The notes under the pieces: generated by a model | Seen by the model: the letters and a program-made list of their open reading frames with translations, nothing else | The model's database searches: none | Told to the model about the DNA's origin: nothing | IMG/VR virus record: IMGVR_UViG_3300012940_000004 | Location: 1 to 54,988 of that record | From: a virus | Lineage: Duplodnaviria > Caudoviricetes | Strand: one strand, 5' to 3' | Length of the DNA stretch: 54,988 nucleotides | Made by a program: the position numbers and the translations under genes | Part shown: in pieces, positions 584 through 54,988 of the stretch | Layout: every line of letters begins with the position of its first letter | Numbering within the stretch: the stretch's first letter is position 1

Positions 584-852
584 TGCGTCTCCTTTGCTTT
601 CGGGGCGGCGGACCACCCAAGGAATGATACCGCGCCCGCCTCCCTCACGGGGAAATGCCCGCGATAGCGCCACCAAGATAGTCACCCTCCGGAACCACCA
701 GTAACAATGACCGCGTCTTTGGACCGATCGCCGGGACACGGTTTCCACCCGAGTTTCGTGCCGGGACGGTTCCGGAGACTAGGTGAGACCGGAAGAGTCT
801 CAGGTCAAAAACTTGGAAAAAACTTTTGAGCAGATCCTTGATATTACTAAAC

Positions 853-950
853 AACCTAATAGACACTATATACCCCCCTACTATTGATTATTTAGAGAAA
901 CTGTACACTAGAACGTGTACAATCACTTGGGGAAACCTAATAGACACTAT
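853..950 (+). promoter_or_regulatory. Two exact 17-bp direct repeats AACCTAATAGACACTAT (853-869, 934-950) in the AT-rich divergent intergenic region
   Basis: Direct sequence match; located between the divergent arms. Confidence 0.7.
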
Positions 951-2667: not shown

Positions 2668-2967
2668 GTGGATGAGAGAACGAGAGAGTTGTTGGAAGCA
2701 GCGTTCCGTGACGACTCGCTGACTCTCAACGATATCTACAACGCGTTCCACTCAGTGACTGGCCTGTCGTACGATGCGTTGCAGCGTCGTCGGAACGCGT
2801 ATCGCACAGAGCACGGACTGCGCAAGCTGCGTGGTCGCCGTCCTCAATCACCTGCCAGCGCTCGCCAGAGCGAGGAGCCACCGTCAGAGTGGGTCGCCAT
2901 CGCCAGAGACTTGTCCCGAATCGCGACTGCGCTCGAGGACATTGTAACCCTGCTCAGCAACCGTTGA
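2668..2967 (+). CDS. Hypothetical, possibly helix-turn-helix DNA-binding protein (99 aa)
   Basis: GAAAGG RBS, extended -10 TGgTAGAAT at 2635-2643; basic SYDALQRRRNAYR helix. Confidence 0.7.
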   Translation: MDERTRELLEAAFRDDSLTLNDIYNAFHSVTGLSYDALQRRRNAYRTEHGLRKLRGRRPQSPASARQSEEPPSEWVAIARDLSRIATALEDIVTLLSNR

Positions 2968-2998
2968 GCAGTCCACCAACACACAAAGGAAAGACCCA

Positions 2999-3355
2999 GT
3001 GTTTATTCCCATCATGCCGCTCTGGACCGCCATCGTCGTGGTCGTGCTGCTCTTCGGCCTCGCCGCGTACTGGATCAGTGTCGCTGAGCATCGTCTCAAG
3101 CGTGCGAACCGTCGGCTGCTGCTGATCGGTGCTGAGCGCGAGATGCAGCGCGTGATCGACGGCATCAACGAGGCCAATTACGACAAGGTCTGTGCGGAGA
3201 ACGAGAAGCTCCACGTCGCGCTTCACGTCATGGTCCAGCAAGCATTTCAGGCAGTCAATCGTGACTACCGTGAGCTGAGCGATGACGACTTGCTCAAGCT
3301 CTACACGGCTGCAATGGACCACGACCACGATACCGTGGCGCGCTTCTTCGTCTGA
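2999..3355 (+). CDS. Membrane protein (single N-terminal TM helix)
   Basis: LWTAIVVVVLLFGLAAYWI followed by basic residues; AAAGGA RBS. Confidence 0.75.
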   Translation: MFIPIMPLWTAIVVVVLLFGLAAYWISVAEHRLKRANRRLLLIGAEREMQRVIDGINEANYDKVCAENEKLHVALHVMVQQAFQAVNRDYRELSDDDLLKLYTAAMDHDHDTVARFFV

Positions 3356-3633: not shown

Positions 3634-4037
3634 ACGGGCGAGGCACTCGACACTATCCAGACGACCGAGCAGCTCGGCGCAGCAGTGAAGAGCTCGAGCG
3701 TCGTCGTGAAGCAGCGCGCAAGCGCGAAGCGTGGGCACGGGCTCAGGCTCCGCAGGTACCGAGCAGGCCGTGGACGCTCGAAGAGCTCCAGCGTCTGTTT
3801 ACGACCGAGCACACGCTGCTACAGTTCGCAATCCTGTTCAACAGGAACTACGGCGACGTTCAGAAGACGTCGGCAGCGCTGACTCGTGCATACGACGAAG
3901 CGCCCGATGAATTCCTCGAGAAGATGCTGTTGACCCCTGTCCAGATCAAGCTGGCCGGGATCAAGTACGGCAAGACAAAACCAGTGTGCGACGAGTGCTT
4001 CATGACGCCGCACGACATCAACTGTTCACACGCATAG
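3630..4037 (+). CDS. Hypothetical protein, possible HTH plus C-terminal CxxC..H..C metal site
   Basis: RPWTLEELQRL motif; VCDECFMTPHDINC. Confidence 0.7.
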   Translation: MNGRGTRHYPDDRAARRSSEELERRREAARKREAWARAQAPQVPSRPWTLEELQRLFTTEHTLLQFAILFNRNYGDVQKTSAALTRAYDEAPDEFLEKMLLTPVQIKLAGIKYGKTKPVCDECFMTPHDINCSHA

Positions 4038-4053
4038 GAAGGAACGACCATCC

Positions 4054-4284
4054 ATGTACAGCCCGCCGCGCCCTGGTCGGGGCACCCGTAAGCAGATCGA
4101 CCGCACCGAGCAGGACAAGGAGGATCTGGCCTTCTTCCAAGCGCGCTTGCAGCACTGGCAGAAGCAACTCGATGAGCTCCCGCCCGTCGGCATGAGACTC
4201 CGCAAGGAAGAAGTCCAGGCACAGATGCTCGTGCGAGAAATCAAGCGCTACGAGCGCAAGATCGCACAGTTCAAGCAGGCCTAG
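4054..4284 (+). CDS. Hypothetical coiled-coil protein
   Basis: AGGAAGGA RBS; followed by a hairpin. Confidence 0.7.
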   Translation: MYSPPRPGRGTRKQIDRTEQDKEDLAFFQARLQHWQKQLDELPPVGMRLRKEEVQAQMLVREIKRYERKIAQFKQA

Positions 4285-4295
4285 TTCGTCTAGAC

Positions 4296-4333
4296 CAGGT
4301 GGCGGTAGCCGTCGGAGACTGCCGCCACCTGTT
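4296..4333 (+). terminator. Stem-loop, possible terminator
   Basis: CAGGTGGCGGT / GCCGCCACCTG arms; weak U-tract. Confidence 0.55.
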
Positions 4334-4357
4334 CCATCAAAGAAAGCGTTTAAAACA

Positions 4358-4762
4358 ATGGCATTCAAGATCAAGCTCAAAGACCTCATCGAACAGCTCG
4401 AAGCTGTCATCGTAGATCGAGGCGAACACTATCAGTACCCGAAGACGTATACCTGCTTCTATGGTGGTCCAGACGAAGCACCCGATTCTAAGGATCGCTG
4501 CATCTATGGCGAAGCACTCGCTCGACTCGGGTGGAAGTATGATCCTCGCATCGAGAAGGCAGGCATCCGTGTGCGGCTCACCGAACGGAAACTGATCGAG
4601 CTCGAAGACAAAGTCTACGAGCATCCAGACGCTGCAGAGCTTCTCAGACTGATCGTGACTGTTCAAAGTATGCAAGACGCTGGAGACGCATACGGTACCA
4701 GCGTCAAGGATGCGGTCAATACTCTCAAAAAGCGTGCAACCGAAATGGGGCTGCTGTCATGA
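4358..4762 (+). CDS. Hypothetical protein
   Basis: ORF 134 aa, ATGA-coupled to next gene. Confidence 0.75.
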   Translation: MAFKIKLKDLIEQLEAVIVDRGEHYQYPKTYTCFYGGPDEAPDSKDRCIYGEALARLGWKYDPRIEKAGIRVRLTERKLIELEDKVYEHPDAAELLRLIVTVQSMQDAGDAYGTSVKDAVNTLKKRATEMGLLS

Positions 4763-10983: not shown

Positions 10984-11020
10984 GAGCGGGCCAGGCGAAT
11001 TTGGGTCGCCTGGCCCGCTC
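10984..11020 (+). terminator. 15-bp stem-loop closing the SSB/peptide unit
   Basis: GAGCGGGCCAGGCGA / TCGCCTGGCCCGCTC. Confidence 0.7.
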
Positions 11021-39396: not shown

Positions 39397-41403
39397 TCAC
39401 GCGGCGGGACTGGCCTCCAGTGCCGCGGATGGATCGATTTGCACCCCAAGCCGCCCCGCGAGGTCGCGAAGGATCGAGCCCATCAAGGACTGCTGTTCCT
39501 GCAACGTTGCAATGGACTGCGTCACACCCTCGACACTTGCGACTATCTCAGACTGTGCACCCGAGATTGCACTCTCGAGTTCATTCGCACGCTCATCGAA
39601 GGCGCGCGAGGCATCCGTTCGACCAGTGCTGAACAGCTGTTCGAGCTCACGACTGTGGTTCGACCCAGACAGTGAGATGATCTTCTGAATGATGAACTGA
39701 ATCGTCGCATTCGCACGAGCGATCATCTGGGGGTCGCCGCCCGCCGCAATCGCGCCCATCGACTGTGTGAGAGATACGAAGACCTGATTCAGGATTCGTA
39801 GTTGCTTCTCATCTTCAAGCTCTGCGAGTGATCCAGGGACTACCTTGACGTAGTAGGGAACCGCCAGTTCCGCAAAGTCCGCCTTGAGCTCACCATTCTT
39901 GAGACCACTGCCGTCCGCAGGGACTACCTCAGTGATCCCGGTCTCGGGATCAGTCCGAGTGTATTCCTCGTGGACGAAGGCCTCGGGCGGCATTCCTGCA
40001 TTGATCAGCTGCTTTCGGGCCTCGGCAGTTGGCGTGAGCTTCTTGATGCTCTTCAATTCCTGGAAGTAGATCGTCGTAGCATAGCTCACGTACTGCGAGA
40101 AGAACGCTTCCATCGCCTTCTGGTAGTTGTTGATCGTAACATCAACAAGCTGTTGCTGCGCCTCGACACCCTGCGGTGTCTGGCTCATCATGCCACCAGT
40201 AGACTGGGCCGCCATCTGCTGATCGGTAGCGCCGACCAGTTGTGCCATGTTGCCAGAGTTCTGTGTCGAGATCTGGCTGAACATGAGCAGTGCCTGCGTG
40301 CTAATCTCGAAGGGTTCGATCTTCGCATTCGGGTTTGGAATCTGCGTGTACTTACCGGGTGCGATGTTCGGCAGCGCATTGACGACACCATACCCGATGA
40401 TGGGCGGTTCAATGTTCAGTCGCCACAGCTTGAGCGCACCGTTCATGAACCAGTCCTGGAACTCCTGTCGGCCATAGATCAGAGACAGGAGTGAGCGTCC
40501 GAACGGCTGCTCGCCGTCGTACTCGGGGATGAAGAAGAATACCGGGTGCCGCTTGAGCGGATCCTTATTCTTCTCGATACGGAGGAGATACCGAGTCTGT
40601 GCTGCCCATGTCAGGAACGGTGCACCGCTGTCACTGTACCAGGTAATGACCTCATACGCCTCGGGATTGACTCGGTGCTTGTGTGACTGTGTATCAGTGT
40701 GTTCACGCTGAATCGGTGCAGTCTGAAGGAGTGACTTGAGAGCTGCCACATCCCAACCGGGTGCGTTAGTCCTGATGAGATTATGAATCTCACCGCGAGT
40801 CAGATAGCGTCGAATGAAGACAGACGGTGCGCGTCGGACGTCCTTGACACCTGGCTCTGGAAAGACATCTCGGTAGTTGATGTTATCGTACTGAATGTAC
40901 CATGTCCCGAGCGCATCCTGGAGCAGGGTGGGAATGACACAGTCAAACCCGAGCGCTCCACCGCGTACCATCGTGGCGTACAGCTGCTGCTGCATGTAGT
41001 TGCTGTATTCGTCATCCCGAATGATCTTGCTCTTGACGATGTAAGTCGGGATAACCCCGCCGATCTGGTCATCATCAAACATGCTCGTTACCGTGACGTT
41101 CGGGGTGTGCTGCACGACTGCGCGGGCGATTCGACGAATAAAGCCTGCTGCATCACCAGAGCTGACATTCGGGAAATCAGCTCGAGGATTTACAACGCTA
41201 GCGTCTGCGATCTTCTCGTACTTCCAGTAGTTCGCGACACGCGCGTCCATCTCGCGCTTGAAGTAATCGTACTTCCGCTGGAATGCTTGTGCGCACGGAC
41301 TGAGTCCGTCTGTACGCAGAGTACCGTCTCGCGGCTCGATCGCGTAGCGCGTGTACCAGTCCTCGAAGGTTTCAACCTTGTCGAACTCCCCCTTTACTGC
41401 CAT
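39397..41403 (-). CDS. Portal protein
   Basis: 668 aa upstream of capsid; VFPEPG, PFGRSLL, TPQGVE features typical of podovirus portals. Confidence 0.7.
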   Translation of the reverse strand: MAVKGEFDKVETFEDWYTRYAIEPRDGTLRTDGLSPCAQAFQRKYDYFKREMDARVANYWKYEKIADASVVNPRADFPNVSSGDAAGFIRRIARAVVQHTPNVTVTSMFDDDQIGGVIPTYIVKSKIIRDDEYSNYMQQQLYATMVRGGALGFDCVIPTLLQDALGTWYIQYDNINYRDVFPEPGVKDVRRAPSVFIRRYLTRGEIHNLIRTNAPGWDVAALKSLLQTAPIQREHTDTQSHKHRVNPEAYEVITWYSDSGAPFLTWAAQTRYLLRIEKNKDPLKRHPVFFFIPEYDGEQPFGRSLLSLIYGRQEFQDWFMNGALKLWRLNIEPPIIGYGVVNALPNIAPGKYTQIPNPNAKIEPFEISTQALLMFSQISTQNSGNMAQLVGATDQQMAAQSTGGMMSQTPQGVEAQQQLVDVTINNYQKAMEAFFSQYVSYATTIYFQELKSIKKLTPTAEARKQLINAGMPPEAFVHEEYTRTDPETGITEVVPADGSGLKNGELKADFAELAVPYYVKVVPGSLAELEDEKQLRILNQVFVSLTQSMGAIAAGGDPQMIARANATIQFIIQKIISLSGSNHSRELEQLFSTGRTDASRAFDERANELESAISGAQSEIVASVEGVTQSIATLQEQQSLMGSILRDLAGRLGVQIDPSAALEASPAA

Positions 41404-44400
41404 TGGTTTAGCCTTCCTCGCTCACTGGAGAATCTAGTACGTCGGACCTCGGAACGACGAATGTTCGGTTCGTTCGCGTACACAGCCGGAACGATGTCAA
41501 TATACGGGTTCTTCATGTCATTCTGGAACGGCATGAACGTCCAGTTAGCGTAGTCTGAGCTGCCGCCACTGCCGCCACCATAGTACCGATAATACCCTGC
41601 ACCGTCACGGTCGTAGGATGCTCCCTTGATAGCGTCTGCAACGTCCTTACCGACCTGCGTGATTGCTTTGAGAATGTCCTCATCGGTCGGATTGGCAGTG
41701 GTTGCATTGACCTTCTCGAGACTGCGCTGACCTGTGTTAACATTACCGACCTCGTCGACGGAGTTGAGCCGGATATCAACACCCAGGTTCCCGATAGCGT
41801 CGCCCGCGCCGGAACCAGAGTACGCATTGAGCGGTGCCTGACCAAAGAAGTTGTAGAGCTCGCCTCGCGAGATACCCGTTGCCCACGGCTTGCCATCAGG
41901 CCCGATGACCCACGTCGTGTTCAACTGACGATAAGTTGTGTTCTCTTGGTACGGGATTTGCCCCTCGTGCGAGTTCTTACTCCAGATGACATCGAAGAGC
42001 GGCGTGGCCCAGGGATTGTCGTCAGAGCCCCACAGGATGTCACTCCATCGCTTGTCGGCTTCCTCGGTCGTGAGCCCCAGGTCAAACGAGTCCTGATAGC
42101 TCTCAGTCATGAGCCGCCGCTGAACCTCGAGTCGCTGATCGAATGTCAGGTAGATGTTATCGAGGACGTGCGAGTCATCGGAGATGTACCCTGCGTGGAT
42201 GCTCTTGAGGAAGGCTTCTGCACCATCAATAGTCAGAGTCTCGTTGTTACCGTTCCACTCTGACAGAATGAAGGCAGTGGCTTCCTCGACAGACGTTGCC
42301 TGCTTGTCGATACTGAACTCACGCGGTGCCATATTGTACCGCCACAGAGTATTCTGACTATCGAAACCAGTGAAGAGGCTAGCGAAGAATGCCAAGGTTG
42401 CTCGTCGCTCACCGTACTGGCGGAGCTGTCCGAAGAGATCATCCCGGCCCGCAGTCCCCAGGGCAGCGTTACCTTCAGAGTCGAGGTACTCGTTCAGTGC
42501 CGTCGTCTCCATCGGCTGATCAAGGTTGTCTCGCTGGATAATTCCATCGGCATCGACGTCCTGCAGTACCCAGGGGTCACGGTCATACTTGTCAGCAGCC
42601 GTGTAGATGCTGTTAATGAACGCATTCTCGAAGAGGTTCCGTTCCAGTCGAGCAATTGCATCGAGCGTGAACTGTGTCGCGTAGGCAAGGATCGTCTCGT
42701 CTGCGCCATTCTCAGCTGCTTCCTCGGCATCCATCGCCTTCTGGAAGAGCATTGTAGCAGTCTGTTCGGTATCGTGCCACGACATCGAGCTGACAAGTGG
42801 CATCGAGCCAATGGCGTCCTCGAAGCCCCAGAATACGTGATTAAAGTTTCCAGTATTGGCGAAGTTCGAGATTCCAATGATCGGGCTGATAAACTGCTTC
42901 AGTGTCCAGTGCAACTCAGCAGGCGAGTGTGTTTCACCAGTCTCGGGATCAACGACTCGGAACATCTGCTCGAGACCTGGAATACCATCCAGGTAGATTG
43001 CGTCTGCATTTCGCCAGTCGTTCTGGAAGTCGCGCGGATCGTAAACATGACCGACCCCGAGCATTTCCTCGCGACGGCGACGCTTCTTATCCTCATCGTC
43101 CCCGCCCGCGAGTCCGCCGAGCACCATGCCGAGTGCAGCGAGCGACGTATGTGTCATGCCTGCACGGATGAACAGATCTGCAAAGTTCACGCTCTCGAGG
43201 GTTGCACCGAGGTAATCGATACCGTGCGTTCGAGCATCGTAGCTCCGACTGTCACCCGACAGCCACGCCTGAACGCGACCCCAACTTGACCCACTAGTCC
43301 TACCCTGGAGTGCAAGCGCGAGCATACCATCCAGCGCTTGCAGACCAAGCATGTTCGTTGCAACATTGAAGAAGTAGTTCTGGAAAGCAAATGGGATCTT
43401 GAGGAACAGGTTACTCGGAATATTGACAAACGGGCTATTGTGCCTCGCGAGTGGATCGATGAAGCTGCGTGCTGCCAGACTGAACGAGGTTGCCTTAATA
43501 GTCCGTGCATTCGCTAGCGAGTTCAGTGCCGTCTGGTATGCAATGGGATGCTCCGCCCTAAAGCGCTGGGGGTTCCGTGCTAGCAGCGTCAGAGCGTCAT
43601 CGAGCGTGCGTCCATTCTCGGATCCGATAGCATCGAAGTACTTAACAACCGCACCGACGACTCGTTGTGATGCAGCACGCTGTGTGATACCATAGCTCGG
43701 ATCTTGCATCTTACCGAAGGCGCGAACCATCCGCTCAGTCCACCGTTCGAATCGACCACCCATGTGTGGCTGATCCTGATACAGCTCCGATTGAATCATC
43801 GAGATCGCTGTCGGGTTACCTGCAAACGATGTCACCGTGTCGTTGATGTGAACGAGCGTATCCAGACTGAGTGACGGTTCAACGTTGCCCGACAAAGTAC
43901 GGGCAACGGTCGAGAAGCCTGTCTTACCCGCACGAATACGATCATTGATCGTTCGAAGCTTCAATCCGAGTGCCGAGGACGATCGACCTTCCAGGAGCAT
44001 TACGGCGTTCTCGAGCGTGTTACGAACACCCGTTTCCATTGGTGCAGAGATGAACAGCCACGGGTGGAACATACCGTTTGCCAGTCGGAGGTTCATGAAG
44101 ATGCGCATCAGCGAGTTAGTGGTCGCCTCGTTGGTGCGGAGCACGTGACCACGCTCATTGATCTGTTGTCCAGACAGGTACGAGTCTGCGAGTCGACGAT
44201 CAGCCAACCACTTCTTCTGCCGTGCCTTTGCCTTGACGAGCTCGTCCTTTCCGAGATACGAGCGCGCGTATCGACCCTGAGTCAGCGTTCCGCCGAAGAC
44301 GTCAGAGATTCGCATATCGACCTCGGACTCCAGAGGCAGCACCTTCAAGAACTGACGATGGTTCTTATCGAGCGACAGAACGATATTGTTGAAGTCAGGA

Positions 44401-47400
44401 TCGAGGAGTTGCAGTCGCGTCAGAGGATCGGTCGAGAGCGGCAGCGTACCACCACCATCGAACGCTGCCTGATACGTGTGCATGAAGCCGTCGACAGCAT
44501 TCTGGTTCAGGCTACTGAATTCGCTGAGCAGCATCTCGCCGAGTGCAGCCTCGTAGAAGTACTCACGCAGAGCAGGGCCGTCCAGGGTGCGGGGGTCGAA
44601 TTGCTTAGGCCGTGCCAGCTCTCCCGTTGCCTGACCCCACGGCATCGGGTCGGGAATGAAGCCCTGACCGTTGCTCCGCTGCCAGGCCTCGATGAACATG
44701 TCAACCTCATCGAGCGCCATACTGGGAACATCGGCCTTCCACGTTGGGAAGCGCCCCGCTGCCAGATTGGTCTCGATTGCAATGAGTGCATCCATTGCAG
44801 CCTTGAAGGACACGTGTCCATACTCCGCCTGGGTCGGTTGCGCATCGCGCTCCTTCGGACGCCAGAGCCAGCGGCGAATCCAGCCGTGAACGACATCACG
44901 ATTGTCGAGGCGCAGTCCGTACCGAGTGAAGAGTCGATCCACACGCTCGTTGAACTCGGTGCGAGTCTCGTCAGTCCAGCCGCGCTCCTCGCCTTCCATG
45001 TCGAAGGTCGCGGAGAACGCCGCCACATTGTATGCACCGAGCTGCTGATGGAGAACCTCGGCAGGTGTCAGGAGCCCTGCCTTGGTCATCGGCGGGACGT
45101 ACCGGTCATTGAGCCCCTGGAAGACTGCAGACAGTCCCTCAACAGTCGAGAGCTTGTTCGGCGACCCTGCCAGGTAGTCTTCGAACGACCACAGTCGAGG
45201 ATCATGACCCGCATCCATGCCATACAGTGCAAGGATGGCCATGTTCCGAAGCGTCTGACTCGCGCGCTGCTTGCTCGACGTCTCGAACGCCTGACCGAAG
45301 ATCGCACCGTTGTCGGATCCCGTAGAGTGCGCTTCCTTGAAGGAGAACAGCCCCTCGCGTTTCGGCTGGCCTGGCGTGTAGATCTCCATCATGAAGTCAT
45401 CAGGTCGCAGGTAGTACCCTTCGGGGCCGTCCGGCGTCTCTCTGAAGGGCAGTCGTGCATTGAGCCGCTTGAAGAACCACTCATTGAGCGGCGACCCAAT
45501 CGGTGCTTCGGCAAAGAGATTAGTGAAGAGCTCCGGCATCGAGACGATGGTGTTCGCAGCACGAACACCAGGTGTCGACATGATGCGATCCACTTCGGCA
45601 CCTGGTGTACCCAGATAGATCAGAGCTGCAAGCGTCACTTGATACTCTGGCGTGACACTCACATTCGCCTGCGACTCCAGTTGCTCACGTGTCTGGTCTG
45701 GGAGCGCAGTGAGGAGTGCCTGGATGTTCGCGGGTACTTGAGTGTAGTTGCCTGCCAGTGCACTAATGTTCGCCTGTGCCGTGATCGGCGAGATAGTGGA
45801 GCTCCGCCACGCATTCCGGTACGAGTCGAGGATATCTACGACTCGCGAATTGATGTCCTGGAATGCTTCGGGGCGTCCGGTATCTCGCTGCGCAATTGCG
45901 CGATCCCACTCTTCCTGCGTCGTTCCGAGGAGAATCTTTGCGTAGGCTTCGACAGGCTCGAATCCGAGTTGCGTGATCGCGGTTGCAGCATTGTCGATCG
46001 CCTCGCCCTCCTTGCTGACATGATCCGCATACGAGATAATGTACGACAGCGGAATGTCTTCGGCGATCTGAAGGTCAGTAATGTCACTACCGGAATTCCG
46101 CAGATCATTGGCTGCGATCTTGATGCCGTCATCCGTGAAGATCATCTTGTCGGACAGAGCACTGAGCGGAACTCGCAACTGTGCGACCAGACCGGTAGAC
46201 GCAATATCCCACGATGCGACGCGGCCCTCGTAGAATGTGGGTGCGTCATCGACCTTGTTCGAATAGATGGCAATGCCACCACGGTGACCGAGTGGTCCCG
46301 GCTCTGCCAGCTGAGTCGCGAGCATGTTGCCGTTGTCTTCGGTCTCAAAGGGTCGATACCCGTGACGAACGATGACCACCTGATTGTTGTTGTCGACCAA
46401 GAAGATGAAGTCACCGAACTTAAGAACGTCGGCAGTATCGTCCTCAGCAGTCGTCTTCGGGAGACCAGTGATCCGGCTCGTGTTGGCGACTGCGCGCTCC
46501 ATGAAGGGCCGCAGTTCCTCCTTGACTCTATTGACGGAGCCGCCGCTCGACATGACAGTGAGCTTTGCCAAGTGTTCGAGCCAGGCTTCTGACGTTGCCG
46601 GATCTGCGAAGTTGTCCAGGTATGCATTAACAGCTGCGACACTCTTCGGAGTACCCGGTCGCTGGAATCCAGGGATGGCTGCCGAGTGGACGAGCGTCTT
46701 CCCGATCCAGACCTCGCGTCCGCGCAACCGCTCAGGCTGTCGAACAAAGGCAGCACTCTCACCTTCCAGTGTAACGTCTGCAAAGACACCGACCATTCGG
46801 CGAGTACTGCGTCGCGTGACAGACAGCAGTGCAGACTCTCGTGCGAGAGCGGTCTGATAGCTCGTCCGAGGATCGCGCAGCATCCACACACCGTGACGCA
46901 GAATGAAGCGGCCCGAGTCTTTGAGCTCGCGCTCGACGTCTACGATTCGAGCAGCGCTCGTTGCTGGACCATAGAGTCGGACACGGTATCCCTCATTCAA
47001 CAGCGTCTCGACCATCGTGTACCGGAAGAGCGGCTGATCGGGATCGATCATGACCTCGTCACCCGGAATCGGGTTGGCACCAGACGCCTGGCCCAGCCGA
47101 GCAGCGTTCCAGTGCATGTCGTCCAGGCTCCGCATGTAGCCAGACTCGGGGCCGCGCTGCCCGCCGAGCTCCAGGATCCACGCGGTCCACGGGGCCGAGA
47201 TGCTCAGGGCACGGCTACCCTCAACCAGATCCTGAGCAGCATCGAGCGCCTTCTGCAGGTGCGTTCGCGTCTCGCTGGTCAGGCCCGCTGCCTCGGGCTG
47301 ATCCAGTGCCAGCGTTGAGAGTGACGGCGCTTGTGCGCTGTTGTACTCGGCATCCAGGACAGTTTGGTAGTTTCGAGTCACCTGCTCACGCAGCTGATCA

Positions 47401-50400
47401 GCGATTCTCGCACGGTTCTGGATACCGCCCTCGAGCTGCGTCTGAGACCAGCGATCCAGAATCGCGCTGTATCGCCGCAGTTCGCGGTTGCTCGCGAGTC
47501 GTTGCGGACGGCTCGTGCGTAGGAAGCTGCCCTTGGCAAACAGCGAGTTCCGAATAGCTTCCACCGGAGTCGGAATTTCAGCTTGGAACAGGCCTGGCAT
47601 GTGCCGCCGCAGGAGCTCCTGATCCCACGTTCCAGTCCAGTTATCCCACGTCTGAATCCTGTTAGAGAACTGTGTCGAATCCATGTTGAACTCGATACCG
47701 GCCTCGCCCTGCTCACCGAGCAGCGTCGCCAGGAAGTCAAACGGAATCGTCAGAACCTGCGCATCACGAAGATTGCCCTCGTCAGGCAGCGTGCCGGGGT
47801 TCTGCTTCTGCCAATTGATAATCTCCTCAGCAGACCAGACATGAACATTGTCGTTCAGATCAACTGTCCGCACGACCGTTTGAATGAGGAACTGCTTCCG
47901 GATACGGTTTCGGTCCCGAGGACTGATCAGGGTTGCGTCCTGATTGGTCTGCATGATCTGCGCCGTCTTGTACTCGATCGTGGCAGCCATGTTGAGTGCG
48001 TTCTCTGTGACCTGCACGTCAGTTCGCGAAGGCAGCGTCGGGTTAATGAGGGCTGCCTTCTGCTTCTTGAGCGCGTCCAGAGCGCGACGAGATCCGAGTT
48101 GCGTCTGACCCGCATTCTGTTGGTCAGCCGCGATAATACCAATGCCCGGCTGTCCACCACCGACACCTGCAACACCATCGAAGTAGATGTTGTTCGCCCA
48201 CTCGAGTCCGAGTGGCCTGTCGTCAGGGTGGAAGAACTCCACCGAGATGGTAAGGTCTGCCAGCTTCAGATCAGCGTAACCAGCAGCTTTCAGTGCCGTG
48301 GTCAATTGTCCGAGGCTCAGAACGCGATACCCTGAGTTCCGAGTCTCCGGCCACGCGTTCGCCAAGAACGTCGGCTTGACTGCAGTAGCAAACAGGTCGA
48401 TCGGCGTACCTGCCGGATCGAGTACTTGTAGCGCCTTGACGAATCGGCCCTCGAGCGTTGCGAGCCGGTCAGTGATACCGCCGAAGTCCCGCTGTCGCTC
48501 ACGATCCGCATCGGTCAGTGGGACCGGATTGGCCTTGGCGTCAGTACTGACGAGGTCGCCACTGTTGAACGTATACGTGCGCGTCGGCTGGCCGTCTGGT
48601 GACGCAAACGTGTAGCGAGTTGCGGTCGCGAGTGTGATGTTGTTCTCAGGATTCGACCCGTACATCGTAATCGCGAGCGGCGCAGACGACTGAAGCGCCC
48701 GGTTCTTACCGTTCAGAATCTGCTGAATGATCGTACTCGAGAACGGTCCGAGCGGGTACTCCTCATTCTTGAAGAGCTCACGCTCGATGGTCTCCACCAG
48801 GTTCTGAACGCCTGCACCAGGTGGGATCGAGTCATTGAGATCCGTAAAGAGCTCTGTCGCCGCGTCCCAAAGGTGGTAGTCATCGTTGGCAGGTGAGGCG
48901 AAGCTATAGAGGAACGACCAGTCACCGAGGAACATCTCGAAGTCCGGATCATCGATAGCCATCGTCGCACGCGCTTCAGGCGACTTGGTCGTCTGCCCCG
49001 TACCCGCGCCGAGCTTGTAGACGATCAGCGCGCGAGACAAGGCCTCCCAGTTCTTCTTGTCCTCTTCCTCGTTCTGGGATGTTGGATACGGATCGGTCGG
49101 TCCGAGTGCGGTTGCCAGGAAGCTCCGAGCACGATCTGCGTCGGGGCCTTGGACGAAGTTCCAGAAGTACCCACGCTGTTTTGCTTCATTCCAGATTCGA
49201 AGCTTGGCATCGTGTACCAGTGCAGGATCATCCGGAATTACGTACTGTGCGACGAGTACCTGACCGGCAGACTCGCCCATGAGCAGCTCACGGTATCGAC
49301 GCTGCTCTTCTTCCTTCTGTACTCGCGCTGGACCAGAGAGTCCGATGAGCTGATCGAGGAACGTCGCATTGATAATGTTCCGAATCGTTCCAGCAACCGT
49401 CCGCTGCATTGGAGTCAGCGATTTGTCATCGGGGTCTGCGAGCGTCGGGCGAGGCTGCAGTCGCTTCAGGAGCGTGCGAACGTCGGCACGGCGACTGGCT
49501 GGCACCTGTGCAAGCGCTCGAAGGATTCGACCCGCAGACTCGATCGCGTCATCGACCCACTGTCGATAGTCTGCCTCGTTCAAGGGAGCCGTCGCGCCGC
49601 TCGTTCGTGCTGCGAAGATCTTCAGCGCCAGCATCAGTGCAGCGTCATCATCCGTCTTAGCATTGACCAGCGAAACGAACTTTGCCAGGTCAGAGAACGA
49701 GTTGCTTCCGAGAATGGCACGCAGGTCTGCCGGATCCGCGACAATGCTGTGCAGGCTCTGATCGGTCAGGCCCTGCAGCGCGGAGCGCCCCTCCTCAGTT
49801 GACGGATCGAAGGCAGTCGGTCCGAGTGCAGCCATGAGCATCGGACGCATTGCGCGATCCTTGTAGAGCTCAGTGACCAGATCGACCGTCAGTCCAGGCC
49901 ACTCGACGGGCGTGCCGTCACGGAGCCAGAACTGCATGGGATCGAGCAGCCGGTCGGGTCGCGCGAAGGCATCCTTCTCACTGATGCTCGTCCAGGCGGC
50001 CATGAGCTGTGCGAGAGGCGTGCCCCACGAGGCCTGCTCCAGCATGACGGCCTGACCGATACCCTCGGTACCCTTTGCCGCGCCCGCCTTGTCCGCCTCG
50101 GAGCCGACAAACCCGATCGCCATGCTGAGCAGGGAGTTGATCATGGTACGCGGGCCTGCCCCAGTCGGCAACTTCCGTGCACGATCAATCGCTCGCTGAG
50201 TTAGCAGTCGTGCCTCGGCATCGCCATTCAGCAGCTTGGTCGCGAACTCTTCGCTCTTGGCTTCATTTGCCAGCGTCGCGTCGAGCAGCTCGGCGGAGCG
50301 CGCGATCTGTTCCCGCATTGCGCGAATGTTCTCGCGGAGTTCCGATTGCGATCCAGCCGGTCGCCAACCACCCTGAGAGAAGCTTGCATCGAATGCAACC

Positions 50401-53400
50401 TGATCCGTCAGGATCGCGAGCTGAGGTACATTGTCACCGTTCAAGTGACGGTTCACGAATGAGAGGAACTGGCGAATACTCGTACTCGTCGCCAGTTGAT
50501 CACGGAAGCGGGCCTGACTCGCGCCCGTCGTGTCAGTCACACCGAGCAACTGATAGAGCGCGATCAGTCGGTTGTGTGAGACACCGTTGCCTTCACGGTT
50601 CGCTTCGAGATCCATCTGCGCCAGGAGCATACCGCGCCACAGCTTGAAGGCAGCGAGATCGCTGTTCTCCTCCACGAGGAACTCGTAGAACCACAGCGGC
50701 ACGTGCAGTCGGCCAGTGTCCAGCCCAGTGAAGACACGCGAGCCGATCTCGGGCGGGATGACCAGTGCGATCTGTCGTGCGAGCGCGGGATCGAGATCGA
50801 GCAGCTCCTGTACCTGTGCAGGCGTCAGGTTCTGGTTACTCCCGCGACGCAACTCGGGACGGCGCTGTCCCATGACTTCGCTCGCTCGCAGCAGGAGTGC
50901 TCGAACCTCCCGCGCGCTCGCCTGCAGGTCGTCGATCGCCTGTGCATCGTTTCGACCCGCCTCAGTGTTCTTCGACGCGAGGCCGGTCTTCTCATCGAGT
51001 GTCACGAAGAGGTTCGCACGCGTCTCAATGACATCCATGAAGAAGCGGAAGGCAGTAACTTCGCCGACAGTGTCAAGGGAAGCAGGCAGTTCAGTACTGG
51101 CCGAGTCGCCGTATGCTGCTTCTCGCTTTGCACGATCGATCACCTGCTTGCGAGCGACGCGACCCTTGCGGACCTGACTCTGAATCGCACTGTCCAGTGT
51201 TTCGGCAGTCCAACCCATTCTACCAGCGAGCGTCTCGCCGACGAGGTCTTCCATGAGCATCGGTCCGAAGAGTTCCTTCGCGGCCTGCTTCATGTCGAGG
51301 TTCAGGAGACGTGCGTACGTCTTTCGAAGCTCGCCATCGTTCTCAGAGAGTACCTCGGCGTCACGACCACGGAAGATCGAGGTTGCGTGTCGCAGGACGA
51401 GCTGTGCGACACTCGTCATCGGCTCACTGTCGTAGAATACCAGTGCGTCGATGTTGTCGGTGACGTTCGGTACCTGGACACGGGCCAGGTCTGCCAGGCT
51501 CAGCTCCGGCTGTCCAGCAGCAGCACGCTCGGTATTCCACTTCGAGCGGATCCGCTGCAGGTTCTCCCGTGCCAGGTTGAGAACCTCCTCGCTCCGAGTC
51601 GCCAACTCCGCTTGCGTTCGCGTCGTACCTGTTGAGAGGACGCGGTACAGCTCCTGCATCCAGCGCGTCACATCATTCGTCGTCGCGGCATCCAGAGTCT
51701 GGCTCGTCAGTGCCGAATACGCGAACTTCTGCTTGACACGGAGGTCGTCGTTACCAGTCGTAGCGAGCTCTGCACTCTGGAAGAGCGTCGCTGCAGGTGC
51801 CGCTCGGAGCTGTGATGCAGGCGACGCCGGAATCTCAGTGACGGTAGTCGGGGTAGCCGTCGGCGGTGCAACCGCTCCGGCCTCGAGCGCGATCGCGTTT
51901 CCCGCTCGGAAGATCGCCCGAGTCCAGATCTCGTTCAGGCGGAATGGAATGCGCTGACCGGAGTTGAGAGCAGCCTGCTCGACAAGCTGGGTCGTCGCGA
52001 GCCACTTCCAGAAGTGCTGCTTTGCAGCCGGGTCGTGACCCTCCAGGAGCGGAACGAGCAAGTTGTCAATGACACCCTGTCGGAGTACTGCAACACTGGT
52101 CTCGTTTGCCTGAGCGAGCAGCCCGACGATTTCCGTGACGGCATCGTTGAGGATCCGCAAGATGCCATCGTACTGCTCGCCATCCTTCGGGTACTTGATG
52201 ATGGTACGCGCGTGTGCCAACTCACCGGCATAGCTGTCGATGAGGATGCCTTCCTCGGACAGGATGTTCAGTCCGAGGCGAAGGCGTGCTCGGGCCTCAC
52301 CGCTCTCGTCGTTCGTCATGAAGCTTCGGAGCGCCGCACCGTCGCCGTCGAAGTCAGCGCTCGGCCCCTTGAGGACAGCGTGATTGACGTACCAGCCACG
52401 GTTCGGCGACCCCGGCTCCTGGTGAGCGGTCAGCACCGCATCGATCATCGGACGCAGCAGCATCCACGAGCCGGGGCTGTCAGTGGGCGACCGGTTCAGG
52501 ATGACCTCTACGGCCTCCCGCGCCTCCTCGTCCGACCACGTTCGAGGTTGCCCAGGAACGGCGTGGATGCCGTTACCGTTGAAGGCCTCCTCGAACAGGA
52601 TGTTGACGGCCTCGATGCTGTTCGTGCCTGCCGGAATCTCGCGGTTGCCATCCAGCGGGATCGGGGCATCGATCGTGTCGGTCGTTGCCAACTGCGGATT
52701 GGCGAGGACGCGCTGCAGCAGGACGCGAGAGAACGCCAGCAGGCTGTTGAGGGCAGCGGCCGCGTTAGTGCGACCCGTCTCCTCCAGGACGCGAGCCTGC
52801 GTACCCAGTGCCTCGAGCGCGCCCTGGAGCTCCATCTGGACGACGTCTGAGGGAACCTCCGGGTTGCCGATCGGGTGCAGCTTCCACGTCCGCTCGCCTG
52901 CAGGCAGTCCATTGTTTCGAGCGGTCTCGAGCGCCTTCAGTGCATCATCGATCGCGACCTGGCGGAACGCGTACGAATTGAACTCGGTCTCAACCTGGTC
53001 GTCTGCCAGATCCTGGATTCGCTGTCGAGCAACCGCGAGCAGCGAGGCGTTGGTCGTCTTCTTGCGCTCCCGGTCAACTGGCGACATGGCACGCCACTCG
53101 GCCTCGGTGATCTGTGGCGTGAACAGCATTGCGTTGACCGCATTGACTTCATCCAGTCCTTGCATCACGGGGTCGCGCCCGACGCGGGCACCGGCAGCCA
53201 TACCTGCACCGACCGCGAATCCTGCCAGGGCAGATCGAACCAGCTCATCGAAGCTCGGTTGATACCCCTCAGACCAGTTCTCCAGGATGCTCTGGACGAC
53301 TTCCTCTGTGCCTTCCGCGAAGCCCGTGAGCAGCGCAGACCGTGCCGTCGAGAGCTCGCGCATCTGCAGGCTCGCCGCATACAGGTCTTCGGCACTGACC

Positions 53401-54947
53401 GCCTGGCCGCGCGTTCCCGACAGCAGGGCCTTGGCACGGGCACTCAGCCAGCCGACGGCCTCACTCGGTGCCAGCAGCGTCACGTTCGGAACGCGCGCGA
53501 CCGAGACTGCCTTACCGTCAACCATGTTGAAGGTACGCCCACCGATCGTCTTCGTGACGTCGGTCTCGATGCCGAGGAGCTTCGCTGCCGTGATTGCATT
53601 CTTGTTACCACCATTGGCAGCGTCGACGATACGCTTCTCGAGCCCGAAGGCGGCATCGGTCGTACCACCAGCGCGCCGCCCAAGTCGGTCTGCCGTGCGC
53701 AGCACCTGCGTCGGCGTGAACGTCTGAACGATGTCGATGCCGGTTGCGCCGATCGCCGATGCCAGCCGCCCCACGTTCTCGACGGGGTCGTCTGCATCCA
53801 TGATCGGATTGAATTCGCGCATCCGGTCATCCCACTGCAGCCCCGTCGCCAATTGAGTGACAGAGCCTGCAGCCTGTGCGCCCATCGTTGCTTGGTAGAT
53901 GATGGCACCCGGCTTGCCAGCAAACTGTGCGAAGGCGTCAGCGAAGCCCAGTCCGAAGCGCAGTGCCTCCAGGCCGAAGTTGTCACGACCCCACTCCTCC
54001 TCGCGGGCACCGACCGAGTTCCCGACGTCCTGATTGGCAGCCTCGACGAGACCGACACCGACGTTGGTGAGCGGCTGTGCCAGGCTCCCGACCGCTGCCG
54101 CGTATCCTTGTACAGCAGTACCCGCGCTCAGGACAGGATTGTTGAGGTCATTGGCTCGGTTCAGCTTGACTTGAGCCTCAGCGAACTGGTCGATGAGCTC
54201 GTCCTGGTTCAGTAGGGCACCGCCCGCTCCGAGCAGGAAGCCGATGCCGCCACCGATCAGGGCACCAGGAGCAGCGCCCGCGCCAGCACCGAGTGCACCG
54301 ATTGCTGCACCAGTACCCGCACCGGTCGCGGCACCGAGACCGCCACCACCGAGCGCGATCGCGATCGGAGCCGCTGCGCCCCAGTCCGCTTCGAGTTGTT
54401 CGCGCTCTTCAACGAACGCCTGCTGTTGCCGGTAAGCCTTTGCGCTCTCGGTCGTCTCATTCGCACGAGAGAGCAGCGCGTCTCGAATCTTCGCCTGGTC
54501 GCCATTGGCGTCTTGGAAGAGATGAAGCTGTTCCTTAGCGTCGAGCTGCAGCTGTGCCAGGATCGCGTTACCCTCAGCCTCGCCATAGTCGTAAACGTTC
54601 TCGATACGCTTGCCGTCTTCCCAGACGTCACCGAACTTGAGCTTACGCTTGGTCCCGTCTTCGAGCGTGACTTCGTCGTCGTAAGTGACCACACCGGTGA
54701 AGTCACTTCGCTCGAACGGATTCATGCCCGCGCGATCGGCCTCGTCGCGCTGCTCGAACATCCGCTTGTAGAACGGTGTATCCCAGCCGTTCCGAATGCT
54801 GCCTTGCTGACCGCCCGTGACAGACCGGTCGGGGCCTGGCTGATCTGCCCACTTGACGTCGGCTGCGCCACTCGGCGCTGCAACCCAGGAGGGTTTCTGA
54901 GGGCCACTCCCAGGTTCGGGAGTGGCCCACGAAGGCGAGTCAACCAA
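41394..54947 (-). CDS. Giant virion-associated polyprotein (4,517 aa) with putative two-barrel RNA polymerase active site
   Basis: Uninterrupted 13.55-kb ORF; LNRSPT (R819) and ADFDGD (D865-D869); glycine-zipper and EGTEE..Q segments near the N-terminus. Confidence 0.85.
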   Translation of the reverse strand: MVDSPSWATPEPGSGPQKPSWVAAPSGAADVKWADQPGPDRSVTGGQQGSIRNGWDTPFYKRMFEQRDEADRAGMNPFERSDFTGVVTYDDEVTLEDGTKRKLKFGDVWEDGKRIENVYDYGEAEGNAILAQLQLDAKEQLHLFQDANGDQAKIRDALLSRANETTESAKAYRQQQAFVEEREQLEADWGAAAPIAIALGGGGLGAATGAGTGAAIGALGAGAGAAPGALIGGGIGFLLGAGGALLNQDELIDQFAEAQVKLNRANDLNNPVLSAGTAVQGYAAAVGSLAQPLTNVGVGLVEAANQDVGNSVGAREEEWGRDNFGLEALRFGLGFADAFAQFAGKPGAIIYQATMGAQAAGSVTQLATGLQWDDRMREFNPIMDADDPVENVGRLASAIGATGIDIVQTFTPTQVLRTADRLGRRAGGTTDAAFGLEKRIVDAANGGNKNAITAAKLLGIETDVTKTIGGRTFNMVDGKAVSVARVPNVTLLAPSEAVGWLSARAKALLSGTRGQAVSAEDLYAASLQMRELSTARSALLTGFAEGTEEVVQSILENWSEGYQPSFDELVRSALAGFAVGAGMAAGARVGRDPVMQGLDEVNAVNAMLFTPQITEAEWRAMSPVDRERKKTTNASLLAVARQRIQDLADDQVETEFNSYAFRQVAIDDALKALETARNNGLPAGERTWKLHPIGNPEVPSDVVQMELQGALEALGTQARVLEETGRTNAAAALNSLLAFSRVLLQRVLANPQLATTDTIDAPIPLDGNREIPAGTNSIEAVNILFEEAFNGNGIHAVPGQPRTWSDEEAREAVEVILNRSPTDSPGSWMLLRPMIDAVLTAHQEPGSPNRGWYVNHAVLKGPSADFDGDGAALRSFMTNDESGEARARLRLGLNILSEEGILIDSYAGELAHARTIIKYPKDGEQYDGILRILNDAVTEIVGLLAQANETSVAVLRQGVIDNLLVPLLEGHDPAAKQHFWKWLATTQLVEQAALNSGQRIPFRLNEIWTRAIFRAGNAIALEAGAVAPPTATPTTVTEIPASPASQLRAAPAATLFQSAELATTGNDDLRVKQKFAYSALTSQTLDAATTNDVTRWMQELYRVLSTGTTRTQAELATRSEEVLNLARENLQRIRSKWNTERAAAGQPELSLADLARVQVPNVTDNIDALVFYDSEPMTSVAQLVLRHATSIFRGRDAEVLSENDGELRKTYARLLNLDMKQAAKELFGPMLMEDLVGETLAGRMGWTAETLDSAIQSQVRKGRVARKQVIDRAKREAAYGDSASTELPASLDTVGEVTAFRFFMDVIETRANLFVTLDEKTGLASKNTEAGRNDAQAIDDLQASAREVRALLLRASEVMGQRRPELRRGSNQNLTPAQVQELLDLDPALARQIALVIPPEIGSRVFTGLDTGRLHVPLWFYEFLVEENSDLAAFKLWRGMLLAQMDLEANREGNGVSHNRLIALYQLLGVTDTTGASQARFRDQLATSTSIRQFLSFVNRHLNGDNVPQLAILTDQVAFDASFSQGGWRPAGSQSELRENIRAMREQIARSAELLDATLANEAKSEEFATKLLNGDAEARLLTQRAIDRARKLPTGAGPRTMINSLLSMAIGFVGSEADKAGAAKGTEGIGQAVMLEQASWGTPLAQLMAAWTSISEKDAFARPDRLLDPMQFWLRDGTPVEWPGLTVDLVTELYKDRAMRPMLMAALGPTAFDPSTEEGRSALQGLTDQSLHSIVADPADLRAILGSNSFSDLAKFVSLVNAKTDDDAALMLALKIFAARTSGATAPLNEADYRQWVDDAIESAGRILRALAQVPASRRADVRTLLKRLQPRPTLADPDDKSLTPMQRTVAGTIRNIINATFLDQLIGLSGPARVQKEEEQRRYRELLMGESAGQVLVAQYVIPDDPALVHDAKLRIWNEAKQRGYFWNFVQGPDADRARSFLATALGPTDPYPTSQNEEEDKKNWEALSRALIVYKLGAGTGQTTKSPEARATMAIDDPDFEMFLGDWSFLYSFASPANDDYHLWDAATELFTDLNDSIPPGAGVQNLVETIERELFKNEEYPLGPFSSTIIQQILNGKNRALQSSAPLAITMYGSNPENNITLATATRYTFASPDGQPTRTYTFNSGDLVSTDAKANPVPLTDADRERQRDFGGITDRLATLEGRFVKALQVLDPAGTPIDLFATAVKPTFLANAWPETRNSGYRVLSLGQLTTALKAAGYADLKLADLTISVEFFHPDDRPLGLEWANNIYFDGVAGVGGGQPGIGIIAADQQNAGQTQLGSRRALDALKKQKAALINPTLPSRTDVQVTENALNMAATIEYKTAQIMQTNQDATLISPRDRNRIRKQFLIQTVVRTVDLNDNVHVWSAEEIINWQKQNPGTLPDEGNLRDAQVLTIPFDFLATLLGEQGEAGIEFNMDSTQFSNRIQTWDNWTGTWDQELLRRHMPGLFQAEIPTPVEAIRNSLFAKGSFLRTSRPQRLASNRELRRYSAILDRWSQTQLEGGIQNRARIADQLREQVTRNYQTVLDAEYNSAQAPSLSTLALDQPEAAGLTSETRTHLQKALDAAQDLVEGSRALSISAPWTAWILELGGQRGPESGYMRSLDDMHWNAARLGQASGANPIPGDEVMIDPDQPLFRYTMVETLLNEGYRVRLYGPATSAARIVDVERELKDSGRFILRHGVWMLRDPRTSYQTALARESALLSVTRRSTRRMVGVFADVTLEGESAAFVRQPERLRGREVWIGKTLVHSAAIPGFQRPGTPKSVAAVNAYLDNFADPATSEAWLEHLAKLTVMSSGGSVNRVKEELRPFMERAVANTSRITGLPKTTAEDDTADVLKFGDFIFLVDNNNQVVIVRHGYRPFETEDNGNMLATQLAEPGPLGHRGGIAIYSNKVDDAPTFYEGRVASWDIASTGLVAQLRVPLSALSDKMIFTDDGIKIAANDLRNSGSDITDLQIAEDIPLSYIISYADHVSKEGEAIDNAATAITQLGFEPVEAYAKILLGTTQEEWDRAIAQRDTGRPEAFQDINSRVVDILDSYRNAWRSSTISPITAQANISALAGNYTQVPANIQALLTALPDQTREQLESQANVSVTPEYQVTLAALIYLGTPGAEVDRIMSTPGVRAANTIVSMPELFTNLFAEAPIGSPLNEWFFKRLNARLPFRETPDGPEGYYLRPDDFMMEIYTPGQPKREGLFSFKEAHSTGSDNGAIFGQAFETSSKQRASQTLRNMAILALYGMDAGHDPRLWSFEDYLAGSPNKLSTVEGLSAVFQGLNDRYVPPMTKAGLLTPAEVLHQQLGAYNVAAFSATFDMEGEERGWTDETRTEFNERVDRLFTRYGLRLDNRDVVHGWIRRWLWRPKERDAQPTQAEYGHVSFKAAMDALIAIETNLAAGRFPTWKADVPSMALDEVDMFIEAWQRSNGQGFIPDPMPWGQATGELARPKQFDPRTLDGPALREYFYEAALGEMLLSEFSSLNQNAVDGFMHTYQAAFDGGGTLPLSTDPLTRLQLLDPDFNNIVLSLDKNHRQFLKVLPLESEVDMRISDVFGGTLTQGRYARSYLGKDELVKAKARQKKWLADRRLADSYLSGQQINERGHVLRTNEATTNSLMRIFMNLRLANGMFHPWLFISAPMETGVRNTLENAVMLLEGRSSSALGLKLRTINDRIRAGKTGFSTVARTLSGNVEPSLSLDTLVHINDTVTSFAGNPTAISMIQSELYQDQPHMGGRFERWTERMVRAFGKMQDPSYGITQRAASQRVVGAVVKYFDAIGSENGRTLDDALTLLARNPQRFRAEHPIAYQTALNSLANARTIKATSFSLAARSFIDPLARHNSPFVNIPSNLFLKIPFAFQNYFFNVATNMLGLQALDGMLALALQGRTSGSSWGRVQAWLSGDSRSYDARTHGIDYLGATLESVNFADLFIRAGMTHTSLAALGMVLGGLAGGDDEDKKRRRREEMLGVGHVYDPRDFQNDWRNADAIYLDGIPGLEQMFRVVDPETGETHSPAELHWTLKQFISPIIGISNFANTGNFNHVFWGFEDAIGSMPLVSSMSWHDTEQTATMLFQKAMDAEEAAENGADETILAYATQFTLDAIARLERNLFENAFINSIYTAADKYDRDPWVLQDVDADGIIQRDNLDQPMETTALNEYLDSEGNAALGTAGRDDLFGQLRQYGERRATLAFFASLFTGFDSQNTLWRYNMAPREFSIDKQATSVEEATAFILSEWNGNNETLTIDGAEAFLKSIHAGYISDDSHVLDNIYLTFDQRLEVQRRLMTESYQDSFDLGLTTEEADKRWSDILWGSDDNPWATPLFDVIWSKNSHEGQIPYQENTTYRQLNTTWVIGPDGKPWATGISRGELYNFFGQAPLNAYSGSGAGDAIGNLGVDIRLNSVDEVGNVNTGQRSLEKVNATTANPTDEDILKAITQVGKDVADAIKGASYDRDGAGYYRYYGGGSGGSSDYANWTFMPFQNDMKNPYIDIVPAVYANEPNIRRSEVRRTRFSSERGRLNQWQ

Positions 54948-54988
54948 GGCTCGGCCCCTTCTCGTACTGTGTGCTTACTCGTGATCGA
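54866..54988. repeat. Exact terminal direct repeat (copy 2)
   Basis: Identical to 1-123. Confidence 0.95.

Follow-up and report, generated by a model that had tools for sequence, protein, structure and literature searches.

What is the function of a single protein whose gene takes up about a quarter of a phage genome? The window analysed here (54,988 nucleotides; IMG/VR record IMGVR_UViG_3300012940_000004) is a complete phage genome. Its ends (1–123 and 54866–54988) overlap by 123 nt, which indicates that the contig was assembled as a closed circle; the region upstream of the giant gene runs across this junction. The rightward arm encodes Pol A, helicases and a prim-pol, and the leftward arm consists of structural genes. 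The first gene of the leftward arm is the giant gene (41394–54947, minus strand), with a stop-free translation of 4,517 aa. A sequence-only reading had proposed that it encodes a packaged, very large, divergent two-barrel RNA polymerase (RNAP) fused to ejection functions, and had seen no other RNAP gene. The latter point held: searches of 29 window proteins with Pfam and of 30 with PHROGs, sets in which small ORFs are only partly covered, yielded neither a further RNAP gene nor a sigma gene. A 15-pair GC-rich inverted repeat that was scored as terminator-like lies between early genes (10984–11020, minus strand).

A family of giant genes beside the portal

The end of the giant gene is overlapped by a portal gene (39397–41403, minus strand) whose product is 57% identical to the portal annotated in Fede and 55% to that annotated in MissAmericana, and a portal-like gene lies directly downstream in all 26 loci that have enough downstream DNA. 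A tblastn search with residues 501–1200 gave 27 phage records, of which 26 belong to Microbacterium phages and the other to Arthrobacter phage MissAmericana; the hosts known for the family, Microbacterium and Arthrobacter, come from these named relatives. In six fetched records and in Burro, the match is a gene of 4,434–4,492 aa before the portal. Family members include Akoni gp31, Fede gp31 and TinyTimothy gp28 (Microbacterium cluster EK, with a gene of >13 kb), Burro gp27 and MissAmericana gp30, all similar to the giant gene in size and pre-portal position, and the motifs described below are in all six annotated relatives and Burro. The window has the hallmarks of the EK/Burro family, namely a gene of >4,400 aa immediately ahead of the portal, a genome of ~54 kb, and divergent early and late arms.

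Contig scans added 30 viral, 48 metagenome and 1 genome loci. A profile of region 2690–3230 retrieved 189 representatives at E ≤ 0.001, with the best 150 listed; clustered at 50% identity, the giant-protein family comprises at least 189 groups. Identity of the giant protein is 23–57% to 12 relatives and 23–30% to the five named phages compared. One 52.8-kb contig of the same phage family (L092, CAZYVL010000003.1) lies inside a MAG labelled Chthoniobacteraceae. It is probably a mis-binned phage; otherwise, it would point to a non-actinobacterial host.

In GenBank, the relatives are labelled 'hypothetical protein' or 'tape measure protein'. MissAmericana gp30 (L002:14977-28281) carries the latter label, yet it is a family member with both motif sets. 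The available text of PMC7302621 describes the giant products as the largest that any actinobacteriophage genome encodes, with an unclear role and the N4 virion RNAP (vRNAP) as the sole comparison. That of PMC8281081 lists a giant gene of unknown function, and the accessible portions of PMC13460095 and PMC13560708 give it no function. The earlier reading, too, described such genes of Microbacterium EK/EM-type phages as annotated without known function. Six names sought in the accessible supplementary files of PMC10770324 do not occur there and, outside subscription journals and PhagesDB notes, we found no paper that gives an RNAP function to the EK/Burro giant family.

Motifs and predicted folds of two polymerase barrels

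Residues 665–1025 (51873–52955, minus strand) are predicted to form a β′-type double-psi barrel (DPBB-A) together with a pore-like helical domain. NRSP at 818–821 and DFDGD at 865–869, with R819 46 residues before D865, had been noticed earlier and are all present in the translation. In the hhalign register, N818-R819-S-P821 (52485–52496, minus strand) aligns R819 to β′ R425, and D865-F-D867-G-D869 (52341–52355, minus strand) is, from its conservation in the family, the predicted Mg-binding catalytic triad (β′ D460/D462/D464). Because R425 and D460 are 35 residues apart in E. coli β′, the loop in the giant protein is 11 residues longer. R819, P821, D865, D867, G868 and D869 are each found in 131/131 aligned family representatives, and the D, D, G and D of the triad motif are kept in 39/39 loci. 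Conservation of the full NRxP and DFDGD motifs was borne out in part, since N818 varies and so does position 866 (F in 60 of the 131 representatives, Y in 33, H in 28, N in 5, W in 2, T in 2 and R in 1). These representatives were gathered with a profile of another region than that of the motif, and the invariance of the six residues rules out a chance occurrence. For a protein of such composition, DFDGD is expected by chance 0.004 times and NRxP..DFDGD about 2e-5 times, and the one at 865–869 is the sole D[FY]DGD within the six frames of the window. The β′ N458 position is occupied by S863, which varies within the family. A double-psi barrel is predicted around the motif and matches RNAP largest subunits. 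The model's fold matches come from RNAP subunits and extend to the pore domain; there is also a profile match to β′. This predicted DPBB-A carries the conserved DxDxD triad and, upstream of it, the R-x-P arginine (R819) of the two-barrel superfamily.

A β-type barrel (DPBB-B) with an inserted flap domain is predicted at residues 2713–2981 (46005–46811, minus strand). The β-flap-like insert (residues 2745–2927; 46167–46715, minus strand) contains G2845-D2846. By eye from motif order, E2730-S2731 (46755–46760, minus strand) is at the place of β E813-D814, and E2730 is conserved in 138/154 sequences. Unguided hhalign put K2934...G2941-x-K2943 (46119–46148, minus strand) in the register of β K1065...G-N-K1073, with K2934 in 151/154 sequences (R in 3) and K2943 in 152/154 (R in 2). 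K2979 (46011–46013, minus strand), in the register of β R1106, is found in 153/154. The two conserved lysines of the superfamily's second barrel are therefore present, and the model matches RNAP subunit folds, including the flap. By its conserved motifs and modelled folds, the giant protein thus has counterparts of the two catalytic halves of a cell-type RNAP, in reversed order. The invariant aspartates, the predicted barrel around them and the second, β-type barrel support the idea of a very large, divergent two-barrel RNAP.

The DxDGD motif lies 2,002–2,286 residues before K2934 in 129 proteins, and 2,069 residues before it in the giant protein. With the DxDGD barrel first and the lysine barrel later, the order is reversed compared with gp66, QDE-1 and the P23-45 enzyme. 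In gp66 of the crAss-like phage phi14:2, the DxDxD barrel is second and the barrels are joined by a connector of ~140 residues, as in QDE-1, whereas here the DxDGD barrel is first and the other follows ~2,070 residues later. Membership in the gp66/QDE-1/P23-45 single-subunit clade was rejected, because that clade has DPBB-B first and a short connector and the order here is A to B. For both barrels, the best profile and fold matches are cellular β′/β and jumbo-phage RNAPs (phiKZ gp55, AR9 β′); gp66 is absent among the 50 matches listed for the first barrel and is in row 22 for the second. By fold, the multisubunit clade is therefore the favoured placement. The earlier comparison with crAss-like phages thus applies to the two-barrel type, but the predicted fold is nearer to the multisubunit β′/β of cells and jumbo phages than to gp66. 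Features shared with multisubunit RNAPs are R-x-P...DxDGD, K...GxK...K/R and the flap inserted in DPBB-B. Unlike these enzymes, the giant protein is a single 4,517-aa chain, the N458 position is not kept, and no alpha, omega or sigma was found for it.

Covariation was examined in an alignment of 177 sequences (effective 155). Pairs coupled within domains (S820-A872, D701-R832, A2733-Y2969 and S2731-I2942) agree with the strand pairing of such barrels. Between the barrel cores, F866-S2731 ranks 1/56,032 and A864-S2972 ranks 5/56,032, but unrelated regions also reach top z values of 6.7–8.5, a range that includes F866-S2731. Both pairs fall in an active-site set of 120 pairs, which was drawn up once a first run had been made, although E2730/S2731 had been chosen earlier. 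This covariation is suggestive only, and hints that the barrels may meet in one active site. The strongest coupling is that of S863 with R2287 (z 11.7), Q2283 (z 8.4) and D2291 (z 7.5), which lie in a predicted helix of modest column conservation (residues 2280–2294; 48066–48110, minus strand). These couplings point to a helix that may touch the catalytic loop as a candidate trigger-helix analogue. Residues 1055–1135 (51543–51785, minus strand) are a candidate funnel or bridge-helix region in which R1070 is invariant (166/166), Y1077 is kept in 94%, and S1082 covaries with V2735 (z 8.8). A β′ 740–940 profile gave no match above decoys in the giant protein, and no bridge helix, trigger loop or clamp was found in it by profile. 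Near-invariant isolated residues (N1499, K1620, G1678, W1967, G2097, P2245 and G2258; stretches 1499–1683, 1967, 2097 and 2245–2258) lie between the barrels and may belong to the clamp, bridge or trigger elements that profiles did not find.

Termini, virion clues and the upstream element

Two uncharged Gly/Ala-rich hydrophobic segments occur at residues 198–246 (54210–54356, minus strand). They have the top family-averaged hydropathy (1.43 and 1.34) with a charged fraction of 0.0, and are a candidate membrane-inserting part. The most conserved block of the giant protein is at its other end (residues ~3860–4517; 41397–43370, minus strand), where no Pfam family scored above cut-off. It has hydrophobic segments at 3862–3880 and 3925–3943 and is likely a packaging or ejection part. 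Its terminus is Arg-rich (RRxRFxSERGRLNQWQ), and the block is possibly a packaging signal or portal-binding part. The giant protein has no cysteine, as do 134/171 relatives; about 20 would be expected at the rate of the other window genes, or about 11 from leftward-arm genes alone. A lack of cysteine is known from ejected proteins such as N4 vRNAP. In the published work on Burro virions, as far as it is available, a band of ~250 kDa is taken to be gp27, either whole or processed. This is half of the predicted ~490 kDa mass, as would be expected if the chain were cut between the β′-like and β-like halves. Packaging in the virion is suggested indirectly by this band, by the neighbouring portal gene and by the cysteine-free chain.

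At the point where late and early genes diverge lies a conserved AT-rich non-coding element, about 80 bp long, found by HMM and built around a G5-6-TATA core (819–904, minus strand). Its core, TATACCCCCC, is near 868–877, and a partial repeat, CCTAATAGACACTAT, is near 937–951. The HMM, built from 21 relatives, matched 31/31 upstream regions in constant orientation, including 10 that had been kept out of its construction; in the whole window, it gave a single match (824–884, E 1.8e-7). The element may be a promoter of the phage, a packaging site or an origin. Farther along, 11-nt repeats, both direct and inverted, are clustered at 2085–2500 (GCGTGTATCGC / GATACACGC); their 9-mer has 11 copies in the upstream region. 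Repeated 9-mers of different sequence precede the giant gene in most relatives as well, and the repeats at 2085–2500 are possibly origin iterons.

Proposed function and alternatives

Because the motifs and predicted folds of both RNAP catalytic halves are present, the gene likely encodes a transcription enzyme that is injected with the DNA. We consider it probable that the giant protein is a virion-packaged two-barrel DNA-dependent RNAP that, by analogy with gp66 and gp96, would be ejected into the host and would transcribe early genes. The protein would be made late together with the portal, and the cysteine-free chain would be packed in the head and pass through the short tail, with the N- and C-terminal hydrophobic parts forming a channel or anchor. 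The two barrels would then fold together, with D865/D867/D869 holding Mg and K2934/K2943/K2979 holding nucleotide phosphates, to give an RNAP that resists rifampicin and would transcribe the early arm. Cleavage near the middle may divide the ~490 kDa chain into a β′-like and a β-like half, each of about 250 kDa. A fuller proposal is tentative and, taken as a whole, rather doubtful: that this is an undescribed virion RNAP lineage in actinobacterial podophages (family of at least 189 clusters), multisubunit-derived, with β′ before β in one 4,500-residue ejection polyprotein that is cut into two ~250-kDa subunits, the enzyme reading just one conserved element, the AT-rich G5-6-TATA one where early and late genes diverge.

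Precedents for virion two-barrel RNAPs are found in the available parts of PMC10770324 and bioRxiv 10.1101/2020.03.07.982082. In Thermus phage P23-45, the RNAP is likewise hidden in a giant virion protein, the 5,002-aa gp96, and was first recognised through a conserved DFDGD, as here. That protein is a siphovirus tape measure fusion with an N-terminal enzyme of ~1,200 residues, whereas the relatives of the giant protein are podoviruses; in the available text of the P23-45 paper, the connector runs from DPBB-B to DPBB-A, opposite to the giant protein. As a giant ejected podovirus polymerase, the N4/Schitoviridae virion RNAP (~3,500 aa in the accessible sources) has an analogous lifestyle. N4 vRNAP has a T7-like single-subunit fold. 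It has no similarity to the EK/Burro giant family according to the available text of PMC7302621.

An active two-barrel RNAP could instead be made in the cell and cut from the polyprotein, with only the structural part packaged. The Burro band is half the predicted mass and only presumed to be gp27, and the Pfam and PHROGs searches gave no second phage RNAP for the late genes; however, the gene heads a late structural operon beside the portal in 26/26 loci and the whole chain, including the polymerase parts, lacks cysteine, so we regard this as unlikely. It is also improbable that the active polymerase has another job, such as replication priming, DNA synthesis (as PolD) or DNA pulling without useful mRNA. 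Such a job would suit the variable position of the sugar-selecting β′ N458, the trigger loop and bridge helix not found by profile, and the circularly permuted genomes of the relatives, which complicate a fixed first-entering promoter. Against it, the R425-equivalent R819 is invariant, the fold matches are RNAP subunits including pore domain and flap, and the phage already has Pol A and a prim-pol.

Extreme divergence and the several RNAP mobile elements that profiles did not detect might suggest an inactive relic retained as a structural ejection protein. This is very unlikely, because conservation is highest at, among others, exactly those positions that are catalytic in the two barrels, and a relic would not keep them. 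The least credible reading is that only the β′-like barrel is real and the lysine region is an unrelated domain, with a β partner from the host or elsewhere. Region-B scores are low in every test, but 0/60 block shuffles reached the real score, the spacing to DxDGD is constant, and the lysine register, conserved E2730 and flap-inside-barrel architecture agree.

The virion-packaged RNAP reading gives a testable function to the EK/Burro giant gene products, so far without a clear role, and cultured members (Burro, Akoni, Fede and MissAmericana) and laboratory hosts exist. If true, there would be a further lineage of virion RNAPs, differing in barrel order from gp66, QDE-1 and gp96; this would bear on the origin of viral two-barrel polymerases from cellular enzymes and on the passage of a ~490-kDa enzyme across a Gram-positive envelope via a short tail. 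Salmonella phage Arash (L096:2165-6742) has a 1,525-aa RNAP β-like protein two genes past the portal, in a similar neighbourhood.
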